A stretch of 40,537 bases of DNA, taken from contig JBHLNY010000003.1 of NCBI GenBank assembly GCA_048941065.1, forward strand, positions 1 through 40,537. Direction: 5' to 3'. This stretch comes from Promethearchaeota archaeon. GTDB lineage: Archaea; Asgardarchaeota; Lokiarchaeia; Sigyniarchaeales; SOKP01. Below the pieces are notes generated by a model. That model did no database searches and was not told the DNA's origin. It saw only the letters and a list, made by a program, of their open reading frames with translations. Both the position numbers and the translations under genes were made by a program. Shown here one piece after another: positions 2,945 through 20,940 of the stretch (the first letter of the stretch is position 1; each line of letters starts with the position of its first letter).

Positions 2945-5707
2945 TTACTTGGCTATTGTAAGTGCTGCTCCTTCATCAACTTTTTCCTCTGGTTTTGTTT
3001 TTTCTAAGAAATAAGGATCAATTATAGCAGATATCTGTTTAAAATCATAGTGTCTTGCATCAATCGCTTTTAATCGGCACGTTGCTGAGCATTTTCCGCA
3101 TCCTTTACATATCGCAGGGTTAATGATAGCTTTTTTAGTGGCAATACTAACATCCTCATATTCTTGTTTAGAGTCTGTAAGTGATATCGCTTTAAATTGG
3201 CAAACTTCAGCACATCTTCCACAACCATTACATTTTTTGGCATTAACTCTCATATCTTTAAAGAAACACTGAATAGATAACATGAATGAGAGATATTCTA
3301 ATTTCGTTGTTGAAATTTGTTTTACACTTAAGAATCTACTTGCTCGACCAGCTGCTGCATTTGATTGTGATATACAATCCTGAATATTTTTTGGCCATTG
3401 AGCACACCCACAAACGAAGATTCCATGCCCTGCAAAATCCAGAGGTCTTAACTTTGTATGTGCTTCAATAAAAAAACCGTTTTCATCAAGGGGAACATCA
3501 ATCATTTGTGATAAATCCTTTAAATCATTAGGTGGGATCATTGGAGTTGCTAATACTATTAGATCAGTATTAAATTCAATAATATTATTTGGATTAGAAT
3601 CATCTCTCAATTTAATTATATATTTTTCTGGATTCTGTCCTATTTTAATAACATCAGGAATATTTTCTAAATCATATCTAATATAATCGGCAATCTCTTT
3701 CCTTTCACTAAATAGTTCTTCAAGCTCTTTTTTAGCCATATGTAGATCTCTGAATAATACAAGTATCTTAACTCTTGGATTAATTTCCTTCAAGATTTCG
3801 ATATTTTTAATGGCATTACTACAACATACATTCGAACAATATGAGAACCCTCCTTTTTGTCTTGCTTTAACACATAGGATAATGCTCACATGTTTCAACT
3901 TATTAAGCCAAGAGATTTCTTTATCTTTTAGCTTTTTTTCCAGTTCTAAGAGAGTTAAGACATTTTTATTATCTTCATTATATTGAAAAAGACCAATCGG
4001 CTTAAATTCTTGACCTCCTGTTGCAATGATTATAGTTCCAACTCTGAACTGGTGAATTTTATTATTTATGTCTAAGAGGGTAACATCGTAATTTCCAATT
4101 GATCCAGTGATGTTCCTAATTTTTGAATTTAAAAATATTCTAATATTGACATTCTTTCTAACTTCTTCCTCAATATTAAAAAGAAAATCTGATGCACTTT
4201 GTTTAGTAGGGTACAACACATTGATAGAATTTATATTTCCTCCTAACTGTTTATCTTTTTCTAAAATAATTGTTTCAAATCCTTGATTACCTAGATTTAA
4301 TGCAGCAGTCATTCCAGAGATTCCACCTCCTATTACTAATGCCCTTGGATTAATACTAATTGTGCCTTCTTTTGGTAATATATCAATTTCCCTTTCTTTT
4401 AAATGTGAGTATCTTACTGGGCTTAATAATGTTGCTACTTCACTTGCAACAGCACTAGCATTAGCAACTGTTTCTGAAATATTCATTGGGCTTTGAGAAA
4501 AACCACATAAATAGACTCCTTCTTTTGTCGATAAAGATTTATCAAAGTAAGAGGCTGATTTGAGAAAATTGTATTGATCTATTTTGATTCCTAAGATTTT
4601 TGCTAATTTATCTGTCCCCTTTGAAGGTACCAATGGTGCTCCAAGAACAACTAAATTTGCTTTATAAGTTTCATCTTTTCTAGATTTCATATCTTTATAG
4701 TGTATAATTAAATCGTTTGTTTCTAGTTCTTCTTCAATATTTTGTATCTTACTATTAATATATTTGATATGATATTCCTCTTGAGCATTTTTAGTATATT
4801 CATAGAAATCTCGACCAAAAACTCTAATATTATGTCTAAAAACAGTAATTTGAGGAGTTTCAACATAAACCCTTGTTAAAATTGCATTTTTTGCAGTATA
4901 CATACAACATACACGTGAACAATAAGGAATATGATTCTCTAAATACCCTGAACCAGCACATTGTATAAATGCTATTTTCTCAGGTTCTTCTTCATCGCTA
5001 GGTCTTAAGATGTGAGTACCAAATGGCCCAGTTGGGCATAAGATTCTTTCATATTCTAATCCATTAACCACATTCTTATATTGATATCCCCATTTTGAAG
5101 ACAATTCTTCTCCCAGCATGTCAAATCCAGTAGCAACGACGATAGCACCTACATTAAATTCAATTTCTTGAGGTTCCTGATCAAAATCTATTGCCTCACC
5201 CTTGCAAACTTTTTTACATACCCCACATACTTCTCTGTTTAAAAATAAACATAATTTTGGGTCAATTAAATATACTGGAGGTGTTGCTTGGGGGAAAGGG
5301 ATATAAATTGATTTTCTTTTTCCTAAATTCATGTCAAAGATATTCGGGGCTTCAATCTTTGGGCATTTCGCAGCACAATCTCCACATCCCTTACACTTGG
5401 TTTCATCAACATATCTCGGGTTCTTAATTATAGATACCTTAAAATTTCCCGAGTTTCCACTAACTTTTTTAACCTCAGATAGAGTAAATAGCTCAATATT
5501 AGGATTCTTGTAAACAGCAACCATTTTTGGAGCAAGCATACATAAGCTACAGTCATTTGCTGGAAATATTTTATCAAATTGTGCCATATGGCCTCCAATT
5601 GATGCTTCTTTCTCTATTAAGTAAACTTTAAACCCTAATTCAGTCAAATCTAATGAGGTTTGGATTCCTGCTATCCCTCCACCAATTACTAAGACAGAAC
5701 CTTCCAA
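2945..5707 (-). CDS. hdrA: HdrA-like flavoprotein, double FAD-domain form lacking the internal Fe-S domain (TTG start)
   Basis: 920 aa; two VIGGG(I)xG Rossmann motifs, DCSLC, ferredoxin CKGCGDCAAKC, YCSRVCCMY, C-terminal 2x[4Fe-4S]; close paralog of 6554-9640. Confidence 0.9.
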   Translation of the reverse strand: MEGSVLVIGGGIAGIQTSLDLTELGFKVYLIEKEASIGGHMAQFDKIFPANDCSLCMLAPKMVAVYKNPNIELFTLSEVKKVSGNSGNFKVSIIKNPRYVDETKCKGCGDCAAKCPKIEAPNIFDMNLGKRKSIYIPFPQATPPVYLIDPKLCLFLNREVCGVCKKVCKGEAIDFDQEPQEIEFNVGAIVVATGFDMLGEELSSKWGYQYKNVVNGLEYERILCPTGPFGTHILRPSDEEEPEKIAFIQCAGSGYLENHIPYCSRVCCMYTAKNAILTRVYVETPQITVFRHNIRVFGRDFYEYTKNAQEEYHIKYINSKIQNIEEELETNDLIIHYKDMKSRKDETYKANLVVLGAPLVPSKGTDKLAKILGIKIDQYNFLKSASYFDKSLSTKEGVYLCGFSQSPMNISETVANASAVASEVATLLSPVRYSHLKEREIDILPKEGTISINPRALVIGGGISGMTAALNLGNQGFETIILEKDKQLGGNINSINVLYPTKQSASDFLFNIEEEVRKNVNIRIFLNSKIRNITGSIGNYDVTLLDINNKIHQFRVGTIIIATGGQEFKPIGLFQYNEDNKNVLTLLELEKKLKDKEISWLNKLKHVSIILCVKARQKGGFSYCSNVCCSNAIKNIEILKEINPRVKILVLFRDLHMAKKELEELFSERKEIADYIRYDLENIPDVIKIGQNPEKYIIKLRDDSNPNNIIEFNTDLIVLATPMIPPNDLKDLSQMIDVPLDENGFFIEAHTKLRPLDFAGHGIFVCGCAQWPKNIQDCISQSNAAAGRASRFLSVKQISTTKLEYLSFMLSIQCFFKDMRVNAKKCNGCGRCAEVCQFKAISLTDSKQEYEDVSIATKKAIINPAICKGCGKCSATCRLKAIDARHYDFKQISAIIDPYFLEKTKPEEKVDEGAALTIAK

Positions 5708-5874
5708 TGAATTTACCTCTTAAAAATATTAAATTAAATTCTTTTTCAAATATTTATTAGAAAAATCTCTTAACAAATCAGTAAAGAAAATTTTCGCTAA
5801 TTATAAGATGAGTATAAGCATTTATTTAAGTATTATGCTCAAAAATGTCGAATTCCATTAATAATATAAGATTA

Positions 5875-5893
5875 TTCTGAAAATTTTTCAGAA
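5875..5893. promoter_or_regulatory. 19-bp palindrome TTCTGAAAA-T-TTTTCAGAA upstream of the 920-aa hdrA; possible operator
   Basis: Perfect 9-bp arms in the 384-bp intergenic region; AT-rich so may be chance. Confidence 0.3.
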
Positions 5894-6091
5894 ATATTTG
5901 TTTGAAAGCAATAATTTTTTAAAGAAGAGTCTATCACTTTCGTGAATTTTGATCCAGATTGTTAAATAATTCTGTATCATTTATCGTAATTAGAAATATT
6001 GACATTCATTTTTTATTAAATTCAGTCATGATCACTTTTTCAACATTTTTAGAAAGAACTAGAGATTTTTATTTTCTTTATATAGATTTAA

Positions 6092-6532
6092 CTAAAGAAC
6101 CTTTAATGGTCCTAATTCCTTTATTTGATTTGTAAATTCTGTTATCAAATCAGCAAACCGCTTTCCTTCTGATGCACTTACCCATTCTAGTCTAACTCTT
6201 TTTTCATTAATTCCTAATTGCTTTATTATTATTTCATGTAATCTTCCAAATCTTTCTTGTGCATATTCATTTCCAGAAATATAATGACAATCACCAATAT
6301 GGCATCCAGTTATGAGTACCCCATCTGCTCCTTCCTTTAAAGCTTTAATTACAAATGAGGGATCAACTCTTCCAGAACACATTACACGCACAATTCTCAT
6401 ATTCGGGGGATATTGAAATCTGGAAACCCCTGCTAAATCTGCTCCTGCGTAGGAACACCAGTTACAACAAAAAACTAATATTTCTGGATTAAAGTCTGGG
6501 AATCTTCCTTTCGCTTTTGCTTTCGGCATCAC
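6092..6532 (-). CDS. mvhD: MvhD/FlxD [2Fe-2S] subunit, Cys form (start GTG 6532 or ATG 6529)
   Basis: FCCNWCSYAGADLAG, VMCSGRVD, GCHIGDCHY, WVSASEG are all MvhD signatures. Confidence 0.95.
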   Translation of the reverse strand: MMPKAKAKGRFPDFNPEILVFCCNWCSYAGADLAGVSRFQYPPNMRIVRVMCSGRVDPSFVIKALKEGADGVLITGCHIGDCHYISGNEYAQERFGRLHEIIIKQLGINEKRVRLEWVSASEGKRFADLITEFTNQIKELGPLKVL

Positions 6533-6553
6533 TTAACATTTCATTAAATATTT

Positions 6554-9500
6554 TTACACTTCTAATAAATATGACTCTATCATGGCAGTTATTTGGTCAA
6601 AATCGTATTGCATTATTGATATGGCTCCATTTGGGCAAGTGGCAGCACAAGTGCCACATCCTTTACATAATGCAGAATTAACAAACGATTTTTTTACTAT
6701 TAAGCTCACATCTTCAAATTCTTTAATAGATTCTAAAATATCTATAGCATTATACGGGCATACGGATTCACATTTTCCACATCCAATGCAATTTATTGGG
6801 TTCACTTCTGCGACTATTCCTGAAGTTTTAATTTCCTTGGCACTTAAAAACCTACTTGCCCTTCCTGCAGCTCCATTTGCTTGAGAAATCGAATCTTGTA
6901 TATTTTTTGGCCATTGTGCGCATCCACATAGGAAAATACCATCTGTGGCAAAATCTAGTGGTCTTAATTTTACATGAGCTTCTAGGAAAAATCCAGTTCT
7001 ATCAAGAGGCACTTTTAATTTTTTAGCTAATTCATCTAAATTATCTGCTGGAATTATGGGAGTTGATAATACAATTAAATCAGTATCAAATTCTAAAAAA
7101 TCTTGGAGATTGGTATCGTAAAATTTAATATTATATTTTTCAGGATTTTTACTTTTTTTACTGATGATTGGAAGATTATCTAAATCATATCTTAAAAATA
7201 TAGCATCCCTTCTATGTTTTCGATAATATTCCTCATACTTTTTCTTAGCCATTTGAAGATCTCTATAGAGTACGATAATTTCAAGTTCTGGTTTTAATTT
7301 TTTTAAAAGTCCAATATTTTTAATAGAATTCCCACAACAAATATTAGAACAATAAGTAATTCCTTCAGTTTGCCTCGCATTTACACACAAGATCGTTGTT
7401 ATTCGATCAATATTATCAAGCCAAGATTTTCCTTTATCTTTTAATTTTTGTTCTAATTCTAATTGGGTTAGAACATTTTTATTTTCTTTTTTATATTGGA
7501 ACAAATCCTTCGGTTTATATTCTTTACCTCCAGTAGCGACAATAATGGTCCCAATACTTAAGTCTTGAGTATTATTTTCTGAATCGATAATAGTTACCAC
7601 GTAATTACCAACATACCCTTTAATATCTTTTACTTTTGCATTTAGAAAGATTTGTATATTTTTATTTTGTTTAACCTTTCCAATAGTCAATTTAAGGAAG
7701 TTTGAGGCGTTTTCTTCGATAGGGTATAAAATATTTAAGTTATTTAAATTTCCGCCTAAGAAACTCTCTTTTTCTACTAAAAATGTTTTAAATCCTTGGT
7801 CAGCAATGTTTAAGGCGGCACTCATTCCAGCAATTCCACCACCGATAATTAATGCTGTTGGGGTGATCTTTAATAATTCTTCTTTCAAAGGTTTTAATAA
7901 TCTTGATTTGGCAATAGCCATTCTAATTAAATCTTTAGCTTTTTGAGTTGCTGCTTCTAAGTCATCCATATGAACCCATGAACATTGATCTCTAATATTT
8001 ACCATTTCAAACAAATATTTATTTAATCCTGCTTCTTGACAGGTTTCCTGAAATAAGGCCTCATGAGTTCTAGGCGTACACGAAGCTACAATAAATCTAT
8101 TTAACTTATGATCTTTTATTAATTCTTTAATTCGCGCTTGAGAATCAGAACTACAAGAATATAAATTATCTTCACAATGTACTACATTAGGTAAAGTTCT
8201 TACATATTCAGCAAGTAGAGGTACTTGAACATATTTACCTATATTAATTCCACAATGACAGATTAGAACTCCTATCCTAGGTTCATCCGTTGTTTTAATA
8301 TCTAATTCAGGTATTTCTAACTCTTTCTCTTTTACTTTATCAAATTTGACAGAATTTAAAAAAGCAGCAACTTGACCTGCTACACCACTTGCATCAGCAA
8401 CAGTTTCTGGTATATCCATCGGACCTTGACAAAATCCGCATAAAAAAATTCCATCTCTAGTCGATTGAGATTTATTAAAGTAATCTTTTTCCTTGAAGAA
8501 CTGATATTCATCCAGCTCTATGTCCAAAACTTTTGCTACATTTTCAGTTCCATTAGATGGAACTAATGGAGTAGCTAATACGACTAAGTTAGCTTTAAAA
8601 TCATCAAATTCTCCTGTTTTTAAATTTTCATAATGAATAATTAAATCATGAGTTTCGGAGTCCTCTTCTATTTTACTAATCTTTGTTTGAAAATATTTTA
8701 CACCATATTCTTTTTGGGCTCTCTGTGTAAATTCATAAAAGTTTTTACCATATGCTCTAATATCATGCCGAAATACAAAACATTGAGAATTATCAGAGTG
8801 TTCTTTTGTTATTATTGCTTCTTTTGCTGTATACATGCAACAAACACTAGAACAATAAGGTATACCTTCATGTAAATCTCTTGAACCTGCACACTGCACA
8901 AAAGCTATTTTTTCAGGTTCTTTTTGATCACTAGGTCTTAAAACATGACCCCCAAAAGGTCCTGATGCACACAAAATTCTTTCATATTCAAGAGCACTTA
9001 CAACATTATCATATTGATATCCCCACCTTGAAGATAGATTTTCAGCTGGCATATCAAATCCGGTAGCAACTACAATAGCTCCCACTTTTAACTCTAATTC
9101 TTTAGGTTTTTGTTCAAAATCTATTGCTTCAGCCTGACATACTTTAGCACATACACCACATACTCCTTTATTTATTTTTAAGCATAATTCAGGATCTATT
9201 AGATATACCGGGGGAACTGCTTGGGGGAAAGGAATATATGCTGACTTTCTCTTACCTAGATTCATATCAAAGAGATTAGGTACCTCTATTTTTGGACATT
9301 TCGCAGCGCAATCGCCACATCCTTTACATTTTGTCTCGTCTATATAACGAGGTTTCTTAAGAACTTTAATTGTAAAGTCTCCAGGTTTTCCTTTTACTTC
9401 TTGCACTTCATGATAAGTCATTAACTCTATATTGGGATTTCGAAATACTTCAACCATTTTAGGAGCAAGTATACATAGCGAGCAATCATTTGTGGGAAAA

Positions 9501-9640
9501 GTTTTGTCAAGTTGAGCCATTCTGCCTCCAATTGAAGGTGCTTTTTCCACTAAATAAACTTTAAACCCTAATTCAGTAAGATCTAAAGAAGTTTGTATCC
9601 CAGCAATGCCTCCTCCGATAACTAAGACTGATCCTTCCAT
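6554..9640 (-). CDS. hdrA: HdrA-like flavoprotein, permuted double FAD-domain form (Cys)
   Basis: 1028 aa; FPTNDCSLCILAPKM, inserted ferredoxin, YCSSVCCMY, internal IGVLICHCGINI/ASCTPRTHE/NIRDQCSW domain, second Rossmann motif, C-terminal ferredoxin. Confidence 0.93.
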   Translation of the reverse strand: MEGSVLVIGGGIAGIQTSLDLTELGFKVYLVEKAPSIGGRMAQLDKTFPTNDCSLCILAPKMVEVFRNPNIELMTYHEVQEVKGKPGDFTIKVLKKPRYIDETKCKGCGDCAAKCPKIEVPNLFDMNLGKRKSAYIPFPQAVPPVYLIDPELCLKINKGVCGVCAKVCQAEAIDFEQKPKELELKVGAIVVATGFDMPAENLSSRWGYQYDNVVSALEYERILCASGPFGGHVLRPSDQKEPEKIAFVQCAGSRDLHEGIPYCSSVCCMYTAKEAIITKEHSDNSQCFVFRHDIRAYGKNFYEFTQRAQKEYGVKYFQTKISKIEEDSETHDLIIHYENLKTGEFDDFKANLVVLATPLVPSNGTENVAKVLDIELDEYQFFKEKDYFNKSQSTRDGIFLCGFCQGPMDIPETVADASGVAGQVAAFLNSVKFDKVKEKELEIPELDIKTTDEPRIGVLICHCGINIGKYVQVPLLAEYVRTLPNVVHCEDNLYSCSSDSQARIKELIKDHKLNRFIVASCTPRTHEALFQETCQEAGLNKYLFEMVNIRDQCSWVHMDDLEAATQKAKDLIRMAIAKSRLLKPLKEELLKITPTALIIGGGIAGMSAALNIADQGFKTFLVEKESFLGGNLNNLNILYPIEENASNFLKLTIGKVKQNKNIQIFLNAKVKDIKGYVGNYVVTIIDSENNTQDLSIGTIIVATGGKEYKPKDLFQYKKENKNVLTQLELEQKLKDKGKSWLDNIDRITTILCVNARQTEGITYCSNICCGNSIKNIGLLKKLKPELEIIVLYRDLQMAKKKYEEYYRKHRRDAIFLRYDLDNLPIISKKSKNPEKYNIKFYDTNLQDFLEFDTDLIVLSTPIIPADNLDELAKKLKVPLDRTGFFLEAHVKLRPLDFATDGIFLCGCAQWPKNIQDSISQANGAAGRASRFLSAKEIKTSGIVAEVNPINCIGCGKCESVCPYNAIDILESIKEFEDVSLIVKKSFVNSALCKGCGTCAATCPNGAISIMQYDFDQITAMIESYLLEV

Positions 9641-10924: not shown

Positions 10925-12025
10925 CTATTGTAGATTATTCATGAAATTTTTTTGACGTTTTAATTTTGATTGAGAATATTGGCTAATTAAATCTAGCATT
11001 TTTTTCTTTTTTGTTGCATCTAAATCTAAGTTATTAATTATTCCTGCATCTAATGCTTTTGAAAGAATCTCCTTTCCCTTTTTTGTTCGAGTTATAACAG
11101 TTGTATATTTATCTCGAGAGCCAAGGCCTCCAAAAGATATATCCGCATAGATGTTTGTAAAATCTCCGCAGGCATTACAAGCAGAGCGCATATAATCATT
11201 TAAATGATTAAAAGGCACGTGTATTATTTTACCATCTTTTAATCTAAAGATTAAATCCTCCTTGATATTGATTTTTTCAATATCACCAAATTTTATATTG
11301 AAATCTTTCTCAAATTTAGCAATTTGGGATTTATCAAATAAAAAGTTTTCATAACAGAAGAGACCAAGGCAAAGTTCAATATTTTCTGAAGGGGTGACCC
11401 CTAAATCTTGCATACATCTCATTGTATATATCTGGCATGGTGTACCTACAACTGCTAATTTCTTAAATTTATAATGGTTTAATTTAGGAATTGAATGAGT
11501 ATAAGTGCAAAACTTTTGAATTTCATTTAAGTGAGAGGATATATCTAGTTTAGCTCCAGATGCTTTCAATAAATCATACTTACTATCGGCAAATGTAGCT
11601 TCTCTTGAAAATGGAGCCTCTGTTTTGGAAACTACCGCTCCATCAATTAACTTTATCTCTATTAAGAAATTAATAATCGAGTTAACAACTCCACCATCAG
11701 TTCCATATTTTAGAAACTCTGAATCAGTAGCTTGACATGAATAAATATCTTCATAATACCCTATAGGCATTGTAACATAATCAGTAAACTTATAAGTTTT
11801 ATTAAGCTCATTATCTAAAATATGAGTCTGAGGACATATGTAATAACAAATTCCACATTCGAGGCATTTTTCCTTATTAATATATTCTGGAGGCTTATAT
11901 AGATCTTTAAGACCAATAACATCATACTCAGCGGAGCTACAAAAACTTACACATCCTCCACACTCTTGACATATCCCCTTCTCATGAACTTCGTTTATTA
12001 AATCTTGAAATGTTTTTGAACTCAT
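10925..12025 (-). CDS. FrhB/FdhB-family (F420-binding) protein with N-terminal ferredoxin
   Basis: CQECGGCVSFC, CLECGICYYICP, GTDGGVV, VVGTPCQ, GLFCYENF, CNACGDFT..ADISFGGLGS. Confidence 0.9.
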   Translation of the reverse strand: MSSKTFQDLINEVHEKGICQECGGCVSFCSSAEYDVIGLKDLYKPPEYINKEKCLECGICYYICPQTHILDNELNKTYKFTDYVTMPIGYYEDIYSCQATDSEFLKYGTDGGVVNSIINFLIEIKLIDGAVVSKTEAPFSREATFADSKYDLLKASGAKLDISSHLNEIQKFCTYTHSIPKLNHYKFKKLAVVGTPCQIYTMRCMQDLGVTPSENIELCLGLFCYENFLFDKSQIAKFEKDFNIKFGDIEKINIKEDLIFRLKDGKIIHVPFNHLNDYMRSACNACGDFTNIYADISFGGLGSRDKYTTVITRTKKGKEILSKALDAGIINNLDLDATKKKKMLDLISQYSQSKLKRQKNFMNNLQ

Positions 12026-12038
12026 ATTATTTAAACAT

Positions 12039-13544
12039 TTAAATTTTCTTATTTCTATTTAATTCAATTGGTTTACAATTTTTCCTTTTTGTTCCAGCAA
12101 TTCTTTCTAAAAGAGCTTGTCCTGGTTTAACTTCTTTTAAACTCTGAGACTCTATTAATCCTGCTTCAATAGCTCCTTGAAAAATCTCCTCACCTTTCTT
12201 TGTACGAGTGATAACAGAAGACCAACCTCCTTGGGAGCCTATTGAACCTACAGATACGTCTGCATAATCTGAGGTCAAATCTTCACAATAATGACAGTTA
12301 TTTCGGGCGTAAGATTTTACATCATTAAGAGGTACTCTTAAGTCTTCCCCTGAATCTAAATAAATGATAAATTTTCCACCGCTTATATCCATCTTTGACA
12401 CTTTTCTAAAATCCTTATCAAATTGCTCTTTAATTAATTTAAGTACGCCTTCATAAGGAAACGCCTCCATGCAAAAAAGCCCTATCCTATATTTAATATT
12501 ATTGAAAAAGGGTAAACCACTTGGAAATAAATTACTTTTTTCAATAGCATTTATCATACAAGGTGTTCCAACAACTGCTATCTTCTTGAATTTTTTTGTA
12601 TCATCAATAATAGCTAAAGTTGATGCATTTGCATATTTCGTTCCACCTGTCTTATATAAATCCTTTATATTATCTACAATCACAGGCTCTGGTTTCCAAA
12701 AATCTTTTGAATGCTGTACTGCTACAATTGCATCAACAAATTTATTCTTTAGTAAATATTCAAGTAACGAGGTTACAATCCCTCCATCTTGTCGTATTTC
12801 TTTAATATTATCCTTAGTTGTTGTGGCTGAATATGTGTTAACATATCCATTTATTTTTTCTGAAAAGTTAAGAGATTTATTAAGCCTTTTTATACTCAAT
12901 AAGGCTTGTTCAATTGAAAAAGAACGAGGACAAACAGAATAACATAATCCGCACTTCATACAAACTTCATCATCTATCTCAAGAGCATCTGCGGTTACTG
13001 CAATTGCATTGACAGGGCAAATTGAGGAACACCATCCACATTGGCAACATGCTCCAGCATCATATACAATAGAAACTGGTTCAAAATAATGTTCAATAAA
13101 ATCTTCTGGAAGTTCTTTCACTTGATATCGATAAAAATATTCTTTTTCTTCAACTTCCTTTTCTTCTCCCTTTATTTTTTTTATAACAGTTTTCGTCTTA
13201 ACTTCAATATGTTCTTCAATGTAACCCTGTTCTTTTAGATAAATTACATCCCTTATTACATTAGTAGGAGGAAATTCTTTGATTAATTCAGCAATTTCTT
13301 CCAAAAACAGAGGTTTCTTTCTCTTTAATTTATTCAGAACTAAATAACGTTCAGTTTCAGCATCAACCATCCCATCTAAGATGTCATAGAATTCTTCTTC
13401 TGTATATTTCCCGGCTTTTAAGATTTCATCTTTTGCTTCAAAAAAAGCTCTTACTTGGAAATTTCCTGAAGCTTTATACGTAGCTTCCATCAATGCATTA
13501 GGAGAGATTTTCTCGAACAATTTGTTATTTATAATTTGAACCAT
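12039..13544 (-). CDS. FrhB/FdhB-family protein with ~150-aa N-terminal helical/wHTH-like extension
   Basis: CCQCGWCSSICP, CMKCGLCYSVCP, RQDGGIVT, VVGTPCM, GLFCMEAF, CHYCEDLT..ADVSVGSIGS. Confidence 0.9.
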   Translation of the reverse strand: MVQIINNKLFEKISPNALMEATYKASGNFQVRAFFEAKDEILKAGKYTEEEFYDILDGMVDAETERYLVLNKLKRKKPLFLEEIAELIKEFPPTNVIRDVIYLKEQGYIEEHIEVKTKTVIKKIKGEEKEVEEKEYFYRYQVKELPEDFIEHYFEPVSIVYDAGACCQCGWCSSICPVNAIAVTADALEIDDEVCMKCGLCYSVCPRSFSIEQALLSIKRLNKSLNFSEKINGYVNTYSATTTKDNIKEIRQDGGIVTSLLEYLLKNKFVDAIVAVQHSKDFWKPEPVIVDNIKDLYKTGGTKYANASTLAIIDDTKKFKKIAVVGTPCMINAIEKSNLFPSGLPFFNNIKYRIGLFCMEAFPYEGVLKLIKEQFDKDFRKVSKMDISGGKFIIYLDSGEDLRVPLNDVKSYARNNCHYCEDLTSDYADVSVGSIGSQGGWSSVITRTKKGEEIFQGAIEAGLIESQSLKEVKPGQALLERIAGTKRKNCKPIELNRNKKI

Positions 13545-13599
13545 ATTTCCTTCAATTTTACAATATTTTTTTTAATAACTTTTCTATTAATATTTTTAA

Positions 13600-13667
13600 A
13601 CTCCCTCCATCGCGTGGATAGTTATCTTATAACCATAATTTATTTATAAGAATCATTCTAAGGGAGT
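13600..13667 (-). promoter_or_regulatory. Candidate SECIS element (eukaryote-like, non-canonical 3' core) in the 3' UTR of Sec-mvhD
   Basis: Starts 2 nt after the mvhD stop. mRNA ACUCCCU..AGGGAGU closing stem; AUGA (13653-13656); 8-bp helix UCUUAUAA/UUAUAAGA; AAA 11 nt after AUGA; extra UCCA-CGCGA-UGGA hairpin. Confidence 0.6.
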
Positions 13668-13669
13668 AG

Positions 13670-14113
13670 TTAATGGATTTTTCCTTTTTTTTTTCGTTTT
13701 ATTTCTAGCAAATTCAGTGGATTGGGTCCAATCTTCCTTATTTTTTCAAGCGTGTCTTCCACACTCCTCACTAATTTTTCAGATTCAGCACTACTTAACC
13801 AATACTGATTAACTCTTTGATTTCCAAAACCTCTTCGATCTAAGATTCTATTCGCTAAATCAACATGAGTCTGAGCTTTAAAATTTCCACTCTTATATTG
13901 GCATTCATCAGGTCGTCATCCAACGACCATAACACCATCTGCTCCAGATTTAATAGCATATAAGATATGCTTAGCATCAATTCTTCCTGTGCAACGTACT
14001 TTTATAATTTTAACCGAAGGTGTATATTTAAATCGAGACACACCTGCTAGATCAGCAGCACCATAACCTCATTTTAAACAAGCGAACATTAGTATATTTA
14101 AATTATTATCCAT
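13670..14113 (-). CDS. mvhD: MvhD/VhuD selenoprotein, 147 aa, two in-frame TGA (codon 15 at 14069-14071; codon 66 at 13916-13918); absent from ORF track
   Basis: Manual translation MDNNLNILMFACLKUGYGAADLAGVSRFKY..VRCTGRID..GADGVMVVGURPDECQYKSGN..YWLSSAES..IGPNPL..H*. Both TGA align to Cys of the Cys paralog (CNWC, GCH). SD GGAGGTGA in the hdrA 3' end. Confidence 0.93.
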
Positions 14114-14117
14114 CTGT

Positions 14118-16058
14118 TTAATCACCTCCTAATATCCCCTCAATTTCAGCATATAATTGATGATCTCTATAATACCGTATATCGATAGCTTGTGTAGGAC
14201 AACAACTAGCACATATACCACATCCATCACAATTAATTTCATCAACAATAGCTCCTTCAGTATCATCAATTTTAATAGCGCCTTTAGGACATTCTTTTTC
14301 ACATCTTCTACAAGAGATACAATAATCTTTATCTATTTGCGCAGTTATTAATTCAATGTCAACTTTTCCTGGAGCTGTTAATTCTGAGACTTTACTTGCT
14401 GCAGCTCTAGCTTGAGACACAGAGTATGCGATATCTTTCGGTCCTTGAGCAAAGCCGGCAATAAAAATACCCTTTGTTTTTGTTTCTTGTGGCATAAGTC
14501 CAAAATGACTTTCAGTTAAAAATCCATTTCGATCTACATCTAAATTCAGAATTTTAGCTATTTTTTCTGTCCCTTTTGAAGGTAATGCGGCAGAGGATAA
14601 TATAACTAGATCAGCATCAATTTTAATAATTTCATCAGTTAAAGATGAATAAACGCGAATATTTACATCTTTAGTTTCTGGATTTTCAGTTATTTCTCCA
14701 ACTTTTCCACGAATCATACGAATATCAGAGTCTTTTGCTCGTTGGTAATATTCTTCAAAACCTTTTTCATTAGTTCTTATGTCTATATAACAAATTGTAA
14801 TATTAGCATCGGGAAATTCTTCTTTTAGAAGCTTCCCATTCTTAAGTGCTAACATACAACATACGCCACTACAATAAGTTCTTTCTGTATCTCTACTTCC
14901 AACACATTGAATAAACACAATTTCTTTGGGCTTTTTATCATCTGACACTCTCCTAACATGCCCTTCTAATGGTCCATTAGGTGCTAGCATTCGTTCTAAT
15001 TGAGCTTGTGTAATTACATTATCAAATTCACCATAGCCATATTCCCCATAGGGTTCATAAATATCCCACCCAGTAGCGATAATAATAGTACCTACTTTAA
15101 ATGTTATTTCCTCTGGGACTTGACTAAAATCTATAGCATCTAATTCACAAGCCTCTACACAATTAAAACATTCAACACAGCTCTCTCTTTGAATATCGTA
15201 TAGAAATGGTACCGCTTGACCAAACGCAATATCAATAGCTTTACGAGCTCCAAGATTCTCATCAAAGTAGTTCGAAGTATAGACAGGGCATACTTCAGTA
15301 CAAGCTCCACAGCCATTGCAATCGTTATTAATATAACGTGGTTTCATTTCTACAGTTACTTCATAGTTTCCGACGTAACCTTCTACATTCTTAACTTCAG
15401 CATAGCTAAGAATTTCAATATTTTCATTTCTGTTAACTTCTAGCATTTTTGGACCGCAAATTCATATGGCACAGTCATCTGTAGGAAATGTTCTGTCTAA
15501 TTGAGCCATTCTTCCTCCAATCGTCGTTTTACTCTCAACCAAATAAACTTTTATTCCTGCGTTTGCAAGATCTAGGGCAGCATTCATTCCCGCAATTCCG
15601 CCACCTACTACTAAAGTAGCTTTTTCTACTGGAACGGTTTTGATAGGTACTACTTCTAATGTTTTAGCTCTCTCGATTCCACTCTTTACTAAGATTTTTG
15701 CTTTTTCTAATGCATCTTCATTACTTTCAGTACACCAAGAGCAATGTTCCCGTACATTAACCATTTGAAAATAATAAGGATTAAGATCTGTTTTGGCAAT
15801 TGAACCCCGGTAAATGGGTTCGTGAGTTCGCGGTGTTCAGGCTGAAGCAACTATACTGGTTAATCCTTTTTCTTTAATATCCTCTATAATTTCATTCTGA
15901 CCACTTTCAGTACACAAAAAGGCATGACTTTTTGAAATAACGACATCGTCCATCTCTTTAGCAAATTCTACTAGTTTGTCGCAATCCACTTTACCTCGAA
16001 TGTTTATACCTCATTGACAAGCATAGTATCCAATCCGATGATTTTTCTCATCTTTCAT
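14118..16058 (-). CDS. hdrA: HdrA selenoprotein, 646 aa, three in-frame TGA (codon 16 at 16011-16013; 74 at 15837-15839; 199 at 15462-15464)
   Basis: One continuous frame joins ORFs 14118-15446 and 15462-15764 and extends to ATG 16058: IGYYACQUGINI, ASAUTPRTHE, FPTDDCAIUICGPKM. Each TGA aligns to Cys in 6554-9640 (ICHCGINI, ASCTPRTHE, DCSLCILAPKM). Confidence 0.93.
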
Positions 16059-16308
16059 ACTCCTTTCCCCTTTCACCTCAATTACTCTTTTAAAATCAAT
16101 AATTTCTATTTTAAACTATTACAATCTTTATGGTATTTAAATTTTTAAATTTATTCATTTATCAAGATAAGGGAAATCCATTATCCAGTTTAATATTTTT
16201 AATTAAAATATACCATATAGAAAATTTTAATTTAGAAAATTAAGAGAAATAAAAAAAATTTTTTAAAAAATATGGAATTTTTGATTCATTTGAAAGACTT
16301 GTCTAAAT

Positions 16309-20132: not shown

Positions 20133-20280
20133 TCTTTTATAAAATTAATGAAAACCTTATAGCAATCTTGATACATGAAATCTTGTAGAGAAGTAAGCAA
20201 AAGAATTTGCACAAGACGTAAATATTAAATACCTTATATGCTTATATTTTGAATAATCTAATGATTCTTTTTAAAAAAGT

Positions 20281-20940
20281 GTGATTTATATGGATAACAA
20301 ATTAAAAATTAAATTAGGAATTATTTTTCTTGGATTAGGAGTTGGTTTCTTACTTATAATTATTGGATTAGCATCAGTTCCACGATTACAGATACCTATA
20401 CCATTGGTAATTTTTGAAATTTTTCCGTTTGTTGGTTATGGATTTCTTATGTCAGGGCTTTCTTATAAAAATAAGGGAATAATGTTGATGGTTACTGGAA
20501 TAATTTTTATGTTACCAATGTGGATTCATGGTACTGTATTGCTTGTTAATCCAACCATAGCTTGGGTTGACTTGATAATAGCTATTTATATCACTTTACA
20601 TTTATTTTTAGCGCTTATATTCATTTTTCCAGCAATTTATTTAATTTATACACATATACCATCTCCAAAAATCCAATATTACAGTCCTTTAGTAGGTTGG
20701 TCGATAGGTATAACAATATTAACATTAATATGTACAACCATAATTACGACTGCAGGAGGCGCAATTGCAAATTCTAGTCAGGGAGTTAATTTTAGAGATT
20801 ATTTTTTCAATAGTTTTGGATACTGTTTAGGGCTAGGTTTTCTTTTAAGTAATCTTCTTATCGGTTTAGGTTATATACTTCAAGGAGCGGGGGTTTCTGG
20901 TTATTCCGTTCCATCGGGAGCTTCAATTCCCACTTCATAA
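20281..20940 (+). CDS. Hypothetical multi-pass membrane protein
   Basis: 219 aa ORF, ~6 hydrophobic segments, no recognised motif. Confidence 0.6.
   Translation: MIYMDNKLKIKLGIIFLGLGVGFLLIIIGLASVPRLQIPIPLVIFEIFPFVGYGFLMSGLSYKNKGIMLMVTGIIFMLPMWIHGTVLLVNPTIAWVDLIIAIYITLHLFLALIFIFPAIYLIYTHIPSPKIQYYSPLVGWSIGITILTLICTTIITTAGGAIANSSQGVNFRDYFFNSFGYCLGLGFLLSNLLIGLGYILQGAGVSGYSVPSGASIPTS

Follow-up and report, generated by a model that had tools for sequence, protein, structure and literature searches.

One SECIS element with a predicted kink-turn and three-way junction behind the hdrA and vhuD genes of a Promethearchaeota archaeon

The RNA element at positions 13600..13667 (minus strand) of a 40,537-nucleotide stretch of DNA from a Promethearchaeota archaeon (Asgardarchaeota; Lokiarchaeia; Sigyniarchaeales; SOKP01) lies directly behind two genes, hdrA and vhuD, which contain five in-frame UGA codons. 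The stretch, referred to here as the window, comprises positions 1 to 40,537 of contig JBHLNY010000003.1 in assembly GCA_048941065.1. Sequence comparison indicates that the element is probably a functional selenocysteine (Sec) insertion sequence (SECIS) of the eukaryote-like type found in Lokiarchaeota, and that it serves both genes. Computational analysis of its relatives further suggests that the SECIS elements of this archaeal family share an architecture in which a kink-turn core forms one arm of a three-way junction.

That one element serves five UGA codons in two cistrons had been proposed in an earlier note on the window. It is the best reading here too, since the element is the only one near the gene pair and sits in a conserved same-strand cluster, but the proposal is not new. 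According to the main text of Mariotti 2016 (PMC4989117), a single lokiSECIS after VhuD is common to all HdrA-VhuD tandems and could serve up to six UGA codons across approximately 2 kb, an arrangement likened there to SelP. The main text of Huang 2024 (PMC11227280) likewise describes AUGA_AA cores in Lokiarchaeia hdrA and frhD, and one element shared by the two genes. With both papers in print, the main inference of the earlier note is a rediscovery. The shared-SECIS model dates from 2016, and the useful addition made here is structural: what retains interest is the conserved kink-turn-plus-junction architecture, which the main texts of the published minimal models lack, whereas the supposed oddities of the window element prove to be normal for the lineage.

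The element as a whole is supported by its match to a full-length model of relatives' elements (13591-13672) and by its minimum free energy (MFE) fold; all positions in this and the following paragraphs are on the minus strand unless marked otherwise. The RNA sequence quoted earlier for 13667..13600 agrees with the window letter for letter. The outer stem, P1, is made of six contiguous pairs between ACUCCC (13662..13667; ACUCCC(U) at 13667-13661 with the following nucleotide) and GGGAGU (13600..13605). Next on the 5′ strand are UAGA (13660-13657), AUGA (13656-13653) and U 13652. The trinucleotide UAG (13658..13660) can pair with CUA (13621-13619) as the C helix of a kink-turn, and is followed by the bulge A-A-U (13657-13655), G1b (13654), A2b (13653) and U at 3b (13652), a segment (13652..13657) that includes the AUGA motif. 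The upper helix P2, or NC helix (13625..13651), has 8 bp in the MFE fold, formed by UCUUAUAA (13651-13644) with UUAUAAGA (13632-13625). It is capped by an 11-nt apical loop, AUAAAUUAUGG (13643-13633), which opens with AUAAA and closes with G; the penultimate nucleotide is G, whereas A is commoner, and the GG-ending variant recurs in three other loci (L076, L002 and L018). The 3′ core strand (13619..13624) contains U at 3n (13624), A at 2n (13623, where G is commoner), A at 1n (13622) and the C-helix strand CUA (13621-13619), and thus reads UAAC (13624-13621) and then UA. The 3′ hairpin P3 (13606..13618) consists of UCCA, the loop CGCGA and UGGA. The C helix leads on its 3′ strand straight into P3, and P3 into P1, so that a three-way junction with hardly a gap is predicted, of which the kink-turn is one arm.

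Elements of this kind were searched for with two models, both of which detect only the lokiSECIS motif. The core model was built from six elements of the source genome, that of the window among them, and the full-length model from 45 elements of relatives, with the window excluded. The full-length model matches the window element with a score of 72.1 bits (E 5.5e-17), which bears out its assignment to the eukaryote-like SECIS elements of Lokiarchaeota. In addition to recognition by the model of its own family, the element has the AUGA motif, the stem and loop sizes, the loop composition, the AA core and the position behind a UGA-bearing gene that characterize lokiSECIS. A genome-wide pattern scan was noisy (547 matches, 159 of them past the loop filter) and served only to choose candidates. 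One element of the source genome, C72, has a 12-nt loop; it was misaligned by MAFFT and omitted from an alignment of the candidates (A3), and is not among the matches of the core model in that genome.

The pairing counts were made on 79 distinct elements, obtained from 77 loci and the window. The pair next to the bulge, -1b·-1n, is G-C in 77 elements, U-A in one and A-U in one; the -2b·-2n pair is A-U in 45, U-A in 20 and C-G in two; and the third pair of the C helix is U-A in 53/79. The bulge is AAU in 74/79 elements, and position 2n is occupied by G in 46/79 and by A in 33/79. These counts, together with the complementarity of UAG and CUA, lead to an interpretation of the core as a C helix, a 3-nt bulge, a G·A pair, an A·G or A·A pair and an NC helix. 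The window core accordingly reads as a canonical kink-turn, with the Watson-Crick C helix UAG/CUA, the bulge AAU, the tandem of G·A and A·A and the NC helix. In the MAFFT alignment, 87.4% of cells in the three C-helix pairs are paired, the covariation of this helix resting mainly on the -2b·-2n pair. The UAAC of the 3′ core had been regarded as an atypical variant, a description that does not hold: AUGA_AA cores occur in 33/79 elements, in the four closest orthologues, which all keep A at 2n, and in Lokiarchaeia according to the main text of Huang 2024 (PMC11227280). An A at 2n on the same upper stem is also present in another genus (L076).

Covariation was scored in three alignments: A4 (MAFFT, 45 rows), A5 (model-fitted, all 79 matches) and A6 (model-fitted, the 17 orthologues from a protein search described below). 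The rows of A4 are 45 of the 52 elements that passed the three-way-junction test, those from L005, L025, L032, L042, L054, L057 and L058 being omitted. Cells are paired at 85.0% in A4 (shuffled, 69.7%; slid, at most 55.7%), at 88.8% in A5 (shuffled, 59.7%; slid, at most 55.1%) and at 84.9% in A6 (shuffled, 73.2%; slid, at most 54.3%), and in A5 all 20/20 pairs have changed on both sides. By helix, A5 shows 80.3% pairing and 7/7 pairs with both-side changes in P1, 99.2% and 8/8 in P2, and 83.6% and 5/5 in P3.

The junction itself is found far more often in the elements than in shuffled flanks. With the core hairpin fixed, the strict three-way junction is the MFE structure in 53/79 elements and in 20/790 shuffled flanks. 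An explicit rule for P3, namely a hairpin of at least 4 bp beginning 1 to 4 nt past the core C, is satisfied by 69/79 elements and by 67/1580 shuffled flanks; when an outer stem of at least five contiguous pairs is added, the figures are 44/79 and 4/1580. A looser three-way-junction criterion was dropped for its poor separation (65/79 against 109/395 shuffled). The outer stem and extra hairpin pointed out in the earlier note are thus present in the window, but they are the rule in the family and no peculiarity of this element. The P3 stem is identical in the four closest orthologues, with only the loop changed, and the P3 loop includes GC or GU in 69/69 cases. Whether the apical loop might pair with the loop of P3 was considered, and the idea dropped, because identical apical loops accompany many different P3 loops: the 79 loop pairs show no covariation by eye. 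In a second group of elements (class B) the 3′ hairpin is longer and P1 is weak or absent.

The elements are characteristic of the family. The core model detects them in 131/131 genomes of the same family, at approximately 4-9 per genome, and in 0/19 genomes from three other families of the same order. Among 150 other genomes of the phylum, the full-length model finds them in 25/25 of the same family, in 4/5 of one other family (weak matches) and in 1/3 of another, and in none of the remaining 117 genomes, which belong to 24 further families. Within the source genome, the element follows 4/4 UGA-bearing vhuD paralogues and 0/6 Cys-type paralogues, and similar elements lie behind other UGA-bearing genes, the association with such genes being strict. 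Elements with P1 and P3 follow UGA-bearing genes of several kinds, namely three groups of VhuD, a Prx-like gene and hdrA without an intervening vhuD open reading frame.

A search with the VhuD protein yielded 17 orthologous loci in metagenome-assembled genomes, mostly labelled Promethearchaeota archaeon, at 67-93% identity; two distant Cloacimonadota loci were also returned, and neither contains a match to the full-length model. The orthologous loci cover up to approximately 3 kb on each side, or 3.8-6.5 kb in total. Exactly one element is present in 17/17 of them, always at the same place, directly after vhuD. In the parsed orthologues the two UGA codons of vhuD are at identical positions, and the hdrA open frame contains 3 to 6 UGA codons. 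Wherever the contig reaches, the order hdrA, vhuD, element, frhB-like, frhB-like, hdrB/C-like is kept on one strand, and an FrhB/FdhB-like gene follows the SECIS in 17/17 loci; the element thus sits in the middle of a gene cluster, as had been suggested from the window alone, and this cluster is conserved. In locus L090, the open frame of hdrA has as many as six UGA codons; with the two of vhuD this would give eight per pair, beyond the six published in 2016. Eight is a maximum, since the frames had not been cut back to their actual start codons.

The hdrA and vhuD genes are encoded, like the element and the downstream genes, on the minus strand. The hdrA gene (14118..16076) has an open frame of 652 codons from GTG to a UAA stop (14120-14118), matches the Pfam Fer4 families and Pyr_redox_2, and contains UGA at codons 22 (16013-16011), 80 (15839-15837) and 205 (15464-15462). 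The vhuD gene, also named mvhD or frhD and belonging to the FlpD family (Pfam PF02662, E 1.1e-43), occupies 13670..14125 or 13670..14113 depending on its start, ends with UAA (13672-13670) in a frame open for 151 codons, and contains UGA at codons 19 (14071-14069) and 70 (13918-13916). The UAA of hdrA is followed by the 4-nt spacer ACAG, as previously read, and then by the vhuD AUG at 14113, with GGAGGUGA (14129-14122) just upstream. This AUG is more likely to be the start than the alternative GTG at 14125, which lies 8 nt inside hdrA. All three UGA codons of hdrA are opposite Cys in 3/3 Cys-type hdrA paralogues of the source genome (tblastn), and those of vhuD match the Cys of NWCS and of GCH in Cys-type paralogues, as compared by eye without an alignment. 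The element starts 13 nt past the vhuD stop, and its AUGA is 2357, 2183, 1808, 415 and 262 nt downstream of the five UGA codons. The reported distance of approximately 2.35 kb to the first UGA is therefore accurate, but a span of approximately 2 kb and the comparison with SELENOP are already in the main text of Mariotti 2016 (PMC4989117). The source genome encodes a tRNA-SeC with anticodon UCA and a SepSecS homologue (486.9 bits, above the curated cut-off).

The following mechanism would account for these features. The hdrA and vhuD genes would be transcribed into one mRNA, on which translation of vhuD, preceded by a strong Shine-Dalgarno sequence, would initiate 4 nt past the hdrA stop. The RNA 3′ of vhuD would fold into the C helix UAG/CUA, the AAU bulge, the G·A and A·A pairs, a 9-bp NC helix and the A-rich 11-nt loop, and the outer stem and the short G+C-rich 3′ hairpin would hold the presumably kinked core within the three-way junction. 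With or without the mediation of a kink-turn-binding protein, this structure would recruit the Sec-specific elongation factor together with Sec-tRNASec, and the factor would decode all five UGA codons, 262 to 2357 nt upstream and in both cistrons, as selenocysteine. Such a signal would be acting at a distance and across a stop/restart junction.

Several points weigh against the interpretation of the element as a functional SECIS for both genes. According to Peiter and Rother 2025, in the part of that work available to us, a lokiarchaeal SECIS was inactive in Methanococcus maripaludis, and no SECIS from Asgard archaea is known to work. Family searches for selB and PSTK in the source genome remained below the curated cut-offs, and at gathering thresholds the window has no match in Rfam, SECIS families included. 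RNAfold does return the three helices, at -16.1 kcal/mol, as had been expected, but the z-score is only -2.16 and 6/200 shuffles are at least as stable, so the fold by itself is weak evidence; in addition, the 3-bp C helix is absent from the MFE fold. Support above chance level is due to the comparative evidence and not to the single-sequence fold, and there the related genomes are non-independent samples, and the alignments lean toward structure (A4 was pre-selected by the three-way-junction test, and A5 and A6 were fitted to the model). Finally, a recoding signal of another kind may exist within hdrA, where it would be invisible to models of the lokiSECIS motif.

This last point leads to an explanation in which the element acts for vhuD alone and the three UGA codons of hdrA are decoded by means of a structure in the coding sequence or by a SECIS-independent mechanism. 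The searches see the lokiSECIS motif only, and in some relatives (L020, L027, L030, L031 and L033) a SECIS with an AAC core directly follows hdrA, with no vhuD open reading frame read between them, so hdrA can own an element; two of the five use the UGA within AUGA as the stop codon. For the tandem, however, there is one element per hdrA-vhuD pair in 17/17 orthologous loci, and the two genes overlap by as much as 8 nt or stand at most 28 nt apart, too close for another to fit. The RNAz screen of coding sequences and 200-nt flanks in the main text of Mariotti 2016 (PMC4989117) gave no other conserved structure. Moreover, the hdrA stop is UAA in 17/17 parsed orthologous loci and in the window, never UGA, as expected if UGA on this mRNA is read as Sec; the same main text gives the HdrA stop as always UAA or UAG. 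A restriction of the element to vhuD is thus unlikely, and the sharing of the element by both genes is preferred.

No second element of this type was detected for the pair. Unfiltered matches of the core model elsewhere in the hdrA-vhuD stretch reach only approximately 11 bits. The next-best match of the full-length model in the window, at 11244-11323(-) with 19.6 bits, was rejected, as it has no AUGA and falls within a downstream coding region. A match of the core model at 20255-20300(+) (20.1 bits, E 0.058) was rejected as a second SECIS, as it has no complementary stem.

A different function of the three-helix structure also has to be weighed: it could be mainly an element of mRNA 3′-end formation, termination, processing or stability, or a regulatory kink-turn bound by L7Ae, with P1 and P3 unrelated to Sec. 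The element is immediately followed by an A+T-rich, TATA-like stretch, and the next gene begins approximately 46 nt on, so that this site could be the end of one transcript and the start of another; P1 is weak or absent in the class B elements; and the one weak Rfam match is a box C/D RNA. That match (snoU43, 16.9 bits, E 4.7) was the only one at E up to 10 in 13400-13800, and was taken as chance. On the other hand, the SECIS core is enclosed by P1, as is P3, and both helices covary. Both also occur behind UGA-bearing genes of several families and are missing behind the six Cys-type vhuD paralogues, and there is no run of U after P1 in the window, where the sequence is UUUAAAAA. We therefore regard such a function as somewhat less likely still than a signal confined to vhuD.

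That the in-frame UGA codons are true stops or assembly errors in broken genes, next to a chance hairpin in A+T-rich DNA, is scarcely credible: the assembly is a fragmented draft (3.5 Mb, 410 contigs, 31% G+C, 6.8% contamination) and the fold z-score is modest, but orthologues in 17 other assemblies have UGA at the same positions, which align with Cys, the two frames remain open throughout, and the high-scoring match of the element comes from a model trained without it.

The window element can be compared with type I eukaryotic SECIS elements, with which it shares a kink-turn core of the AUGA...GA type, unpaired adenines in the loop, a 3′ position and distant UGA codons. The upper helix of eukaryotic SECIS elements has approximately 12 to 14 bp. 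In the window it is shorter (9 bp), and the element differs further in its regular 3-nt bulge, its Watson-Crick C helix and the third helix on its 3′ strand. A stem shorter than the eukaryotic one is already ascribed to lokiSECIS in the main text of Mariotti 2016 (PMC4989117), and, as far as the available texts of that paper and of Peiter and Rother 2025 go, no SBP2 is known in archaea. In SELENOP several UGA codons per mRNA are likewise decoded from 3′ signals, but with two SECIS elements and one reading frame, according to the same main text (PMC4989117), where the window has one element and two cistrons.

Among archaeal elements, the closest counterpart is the published lokiSECIS, which is defined in the main text of Mariotti 2016 (PMC4989117) by AUGA, a 9-bp stem, an 11-nt loop with an A-rich start and a final G, and then GA, with AA in VhuU. 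The window element agrees in the AUGA before the stem, the 9-bp stem (including a U·U), the 11-nt loop with its A-rich start and final G, the position just after vhuD, the single element per tandem, the multi-Sec HdrA and the UAA of hdrA; it differs from that description in its AA core, reported in 2016 only for VhuU, and in the G, instead of A, before the loop-final G. The type I eSECIS-like elements in the main text of Huang 2024 (PMC11227280) have the same AUGA_AA core, the element shared by hdrA and frhD, and a lower stem with an internal loop, but only two helices, whereas the window element has a third. The vhuD SECIS elements of Methanococcales and Methanopyrus are set apart by the euryarchaeal GAA_A bulge and G-C clamps, neither of which the window element has; as judged by reading the fold and sequence, with no dedicated model run, a GAA_A bulge with G-C flanks is not present in 13590-13675.

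Among known kink-turns, the k-junction of the TPP riboswitch (Wang 2014, PMC4005666) is, from the portion of that paper available, similar in combining a kink-turn with a three-way junction and in bearing the third helix on the non-bulged strand. There, however, the third helix is directly opposite the loop, whereas in the window element CUA is first paired with UAG. A strict k-junction was rejected, since this CUA separates the A at 1n from P3, and the predicted structure is a standard kink-turn beside a junction. An A at 2n is tolerated in the k-junction of TPP riboswitches, according to the main text of Huang 2024 (PMC11227280).

The conserved combination of C helix, P1 and P3 may be new. 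The main text of Mariotti 2016 describes no outer stem, 3′ hairpin or UAG/CUA helix for lokiSECIS (supplements may differ); it contains none of the terms 'junction', 'lower stem' and 'helix', has 'hairpin' in the title of a reference alone, and reserves 'extra stem' for the VhuD elements of methanogens. In the main text of Huang 2024, 'hairpin' and 'three-way' do not appear, 'junction' appears only in a reference title, and 'k-junction' only in a citation on GA_AA pairing (supplements may differ). The available text of a 2026 review (PMC13188914) makes no mention of a kink-turn-plus-junction SECIS architecture, and literature searches on SECIS with three-way junction or k-junction, and on Asgard with kink-turn, returned nothing that describes such an architecture in Asgard archaea, the papers on three-way junctions being judged by title and opening of the abstract.

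It is conceivable, although we hold the proposal only tentatively, that the SECIS of this family is more than a plain eukaryote-like hairpin, and that P1 and the G+C-rich P3 of its tightly closed junction are required parts of the signal and fix the kink-turn, while the strictly fixed length of P2 and its loop places the A-rich loop; decoding of up to eight UGA codons in two cistrons would then be possible, and the failure in Methanococcus might be explained. If the C helix, P1 and P3 do belong to the signal, models for SECIS searches in Asgard archaea should include them, reporters should carry the full element of approximately 68 nt, and the hunt for a SECIS-binding factor can begin with proteins that bind regular kink-turns.

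Downstream of the element, an A+T-rich spacer (13545..13599) opens with the TATA-box-like UUUAAAAAUAUU and ends with GAAGGAAAU before the AUG of the first conserved downstream gene, which encodes an FrhB/FdhB-like protein of 501 aa (12039..13544; Pfam FrhB_FdhB_C, E 3.9e-43) and is followed by more frhB-like and then hdrB/C-like genes. In most loci the spacer between the element and the next gene is approximately 40 to 60 nt long, and a similar TATA-like A+T opening is present in most orthologues. The TATA-like stretch, conserved in the spacers of L078-L094 and in the window spacer, lies approximately 45 nt before the frhB-like start; it could be an internal promoter, in which case the element could mark a transcript boundary. 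Elsewhere in the window, 3017-9640(-) contains additional segments resembling hdrA, together with an mvhD of the Cys type (6496-6107) that has neither in-frame UGA nor SECIS, and the window therefore has Sec-type and Cys-type hdr/mvh clusters side by side.

Three kinds of UGA-bearing frame followed by a SECIS were also observed. The first is a frame of approximately 150 to 180 codons with two adjacent UGA codons, in motifs such as H-A-D-U-U-A-D or G-C-U-U-E-K, represented in the source genome by L001:2595-3092 (contig C312) and with relatives in L016, L040, L052, L054, L055, L057, L058, L064, L065 and L066. The SECIS behind it has a long 3′ hairpin, and its outer stem is weak. The frame belongs to no Pfam family, nor do the consulted passages of Huang 2024 (PMC11227280) and of the 2026 review (PMC13188914) name it with the selenoprotein families of archaea. 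The second consists of frames of 75 to 82 codons (L058:1487-1726, L064:855-1079 and L066:571-816) with at least four UGA codons in a Cys-rich pattern (U-L-x-W, U-x-U, P-U-L), each with its own SECIS and adjoining a gene of the first kind; that of L064 has no Pfam match. The third comprises short frames (L028:1542-1745, L072:587-796 and, in the source genome, L006:645-809 on contig C320) with a hydrophobic stretch and one UGA near the C terminus, in the motif G-G-G-U or G-I-G-U, before a SECIS; those of L072 and L006 have no meaningful Pfam match. The UGA-rich frames that combine a SECIS with the lack of a Pfam family may encode undescribed archaeal selenoproteins.

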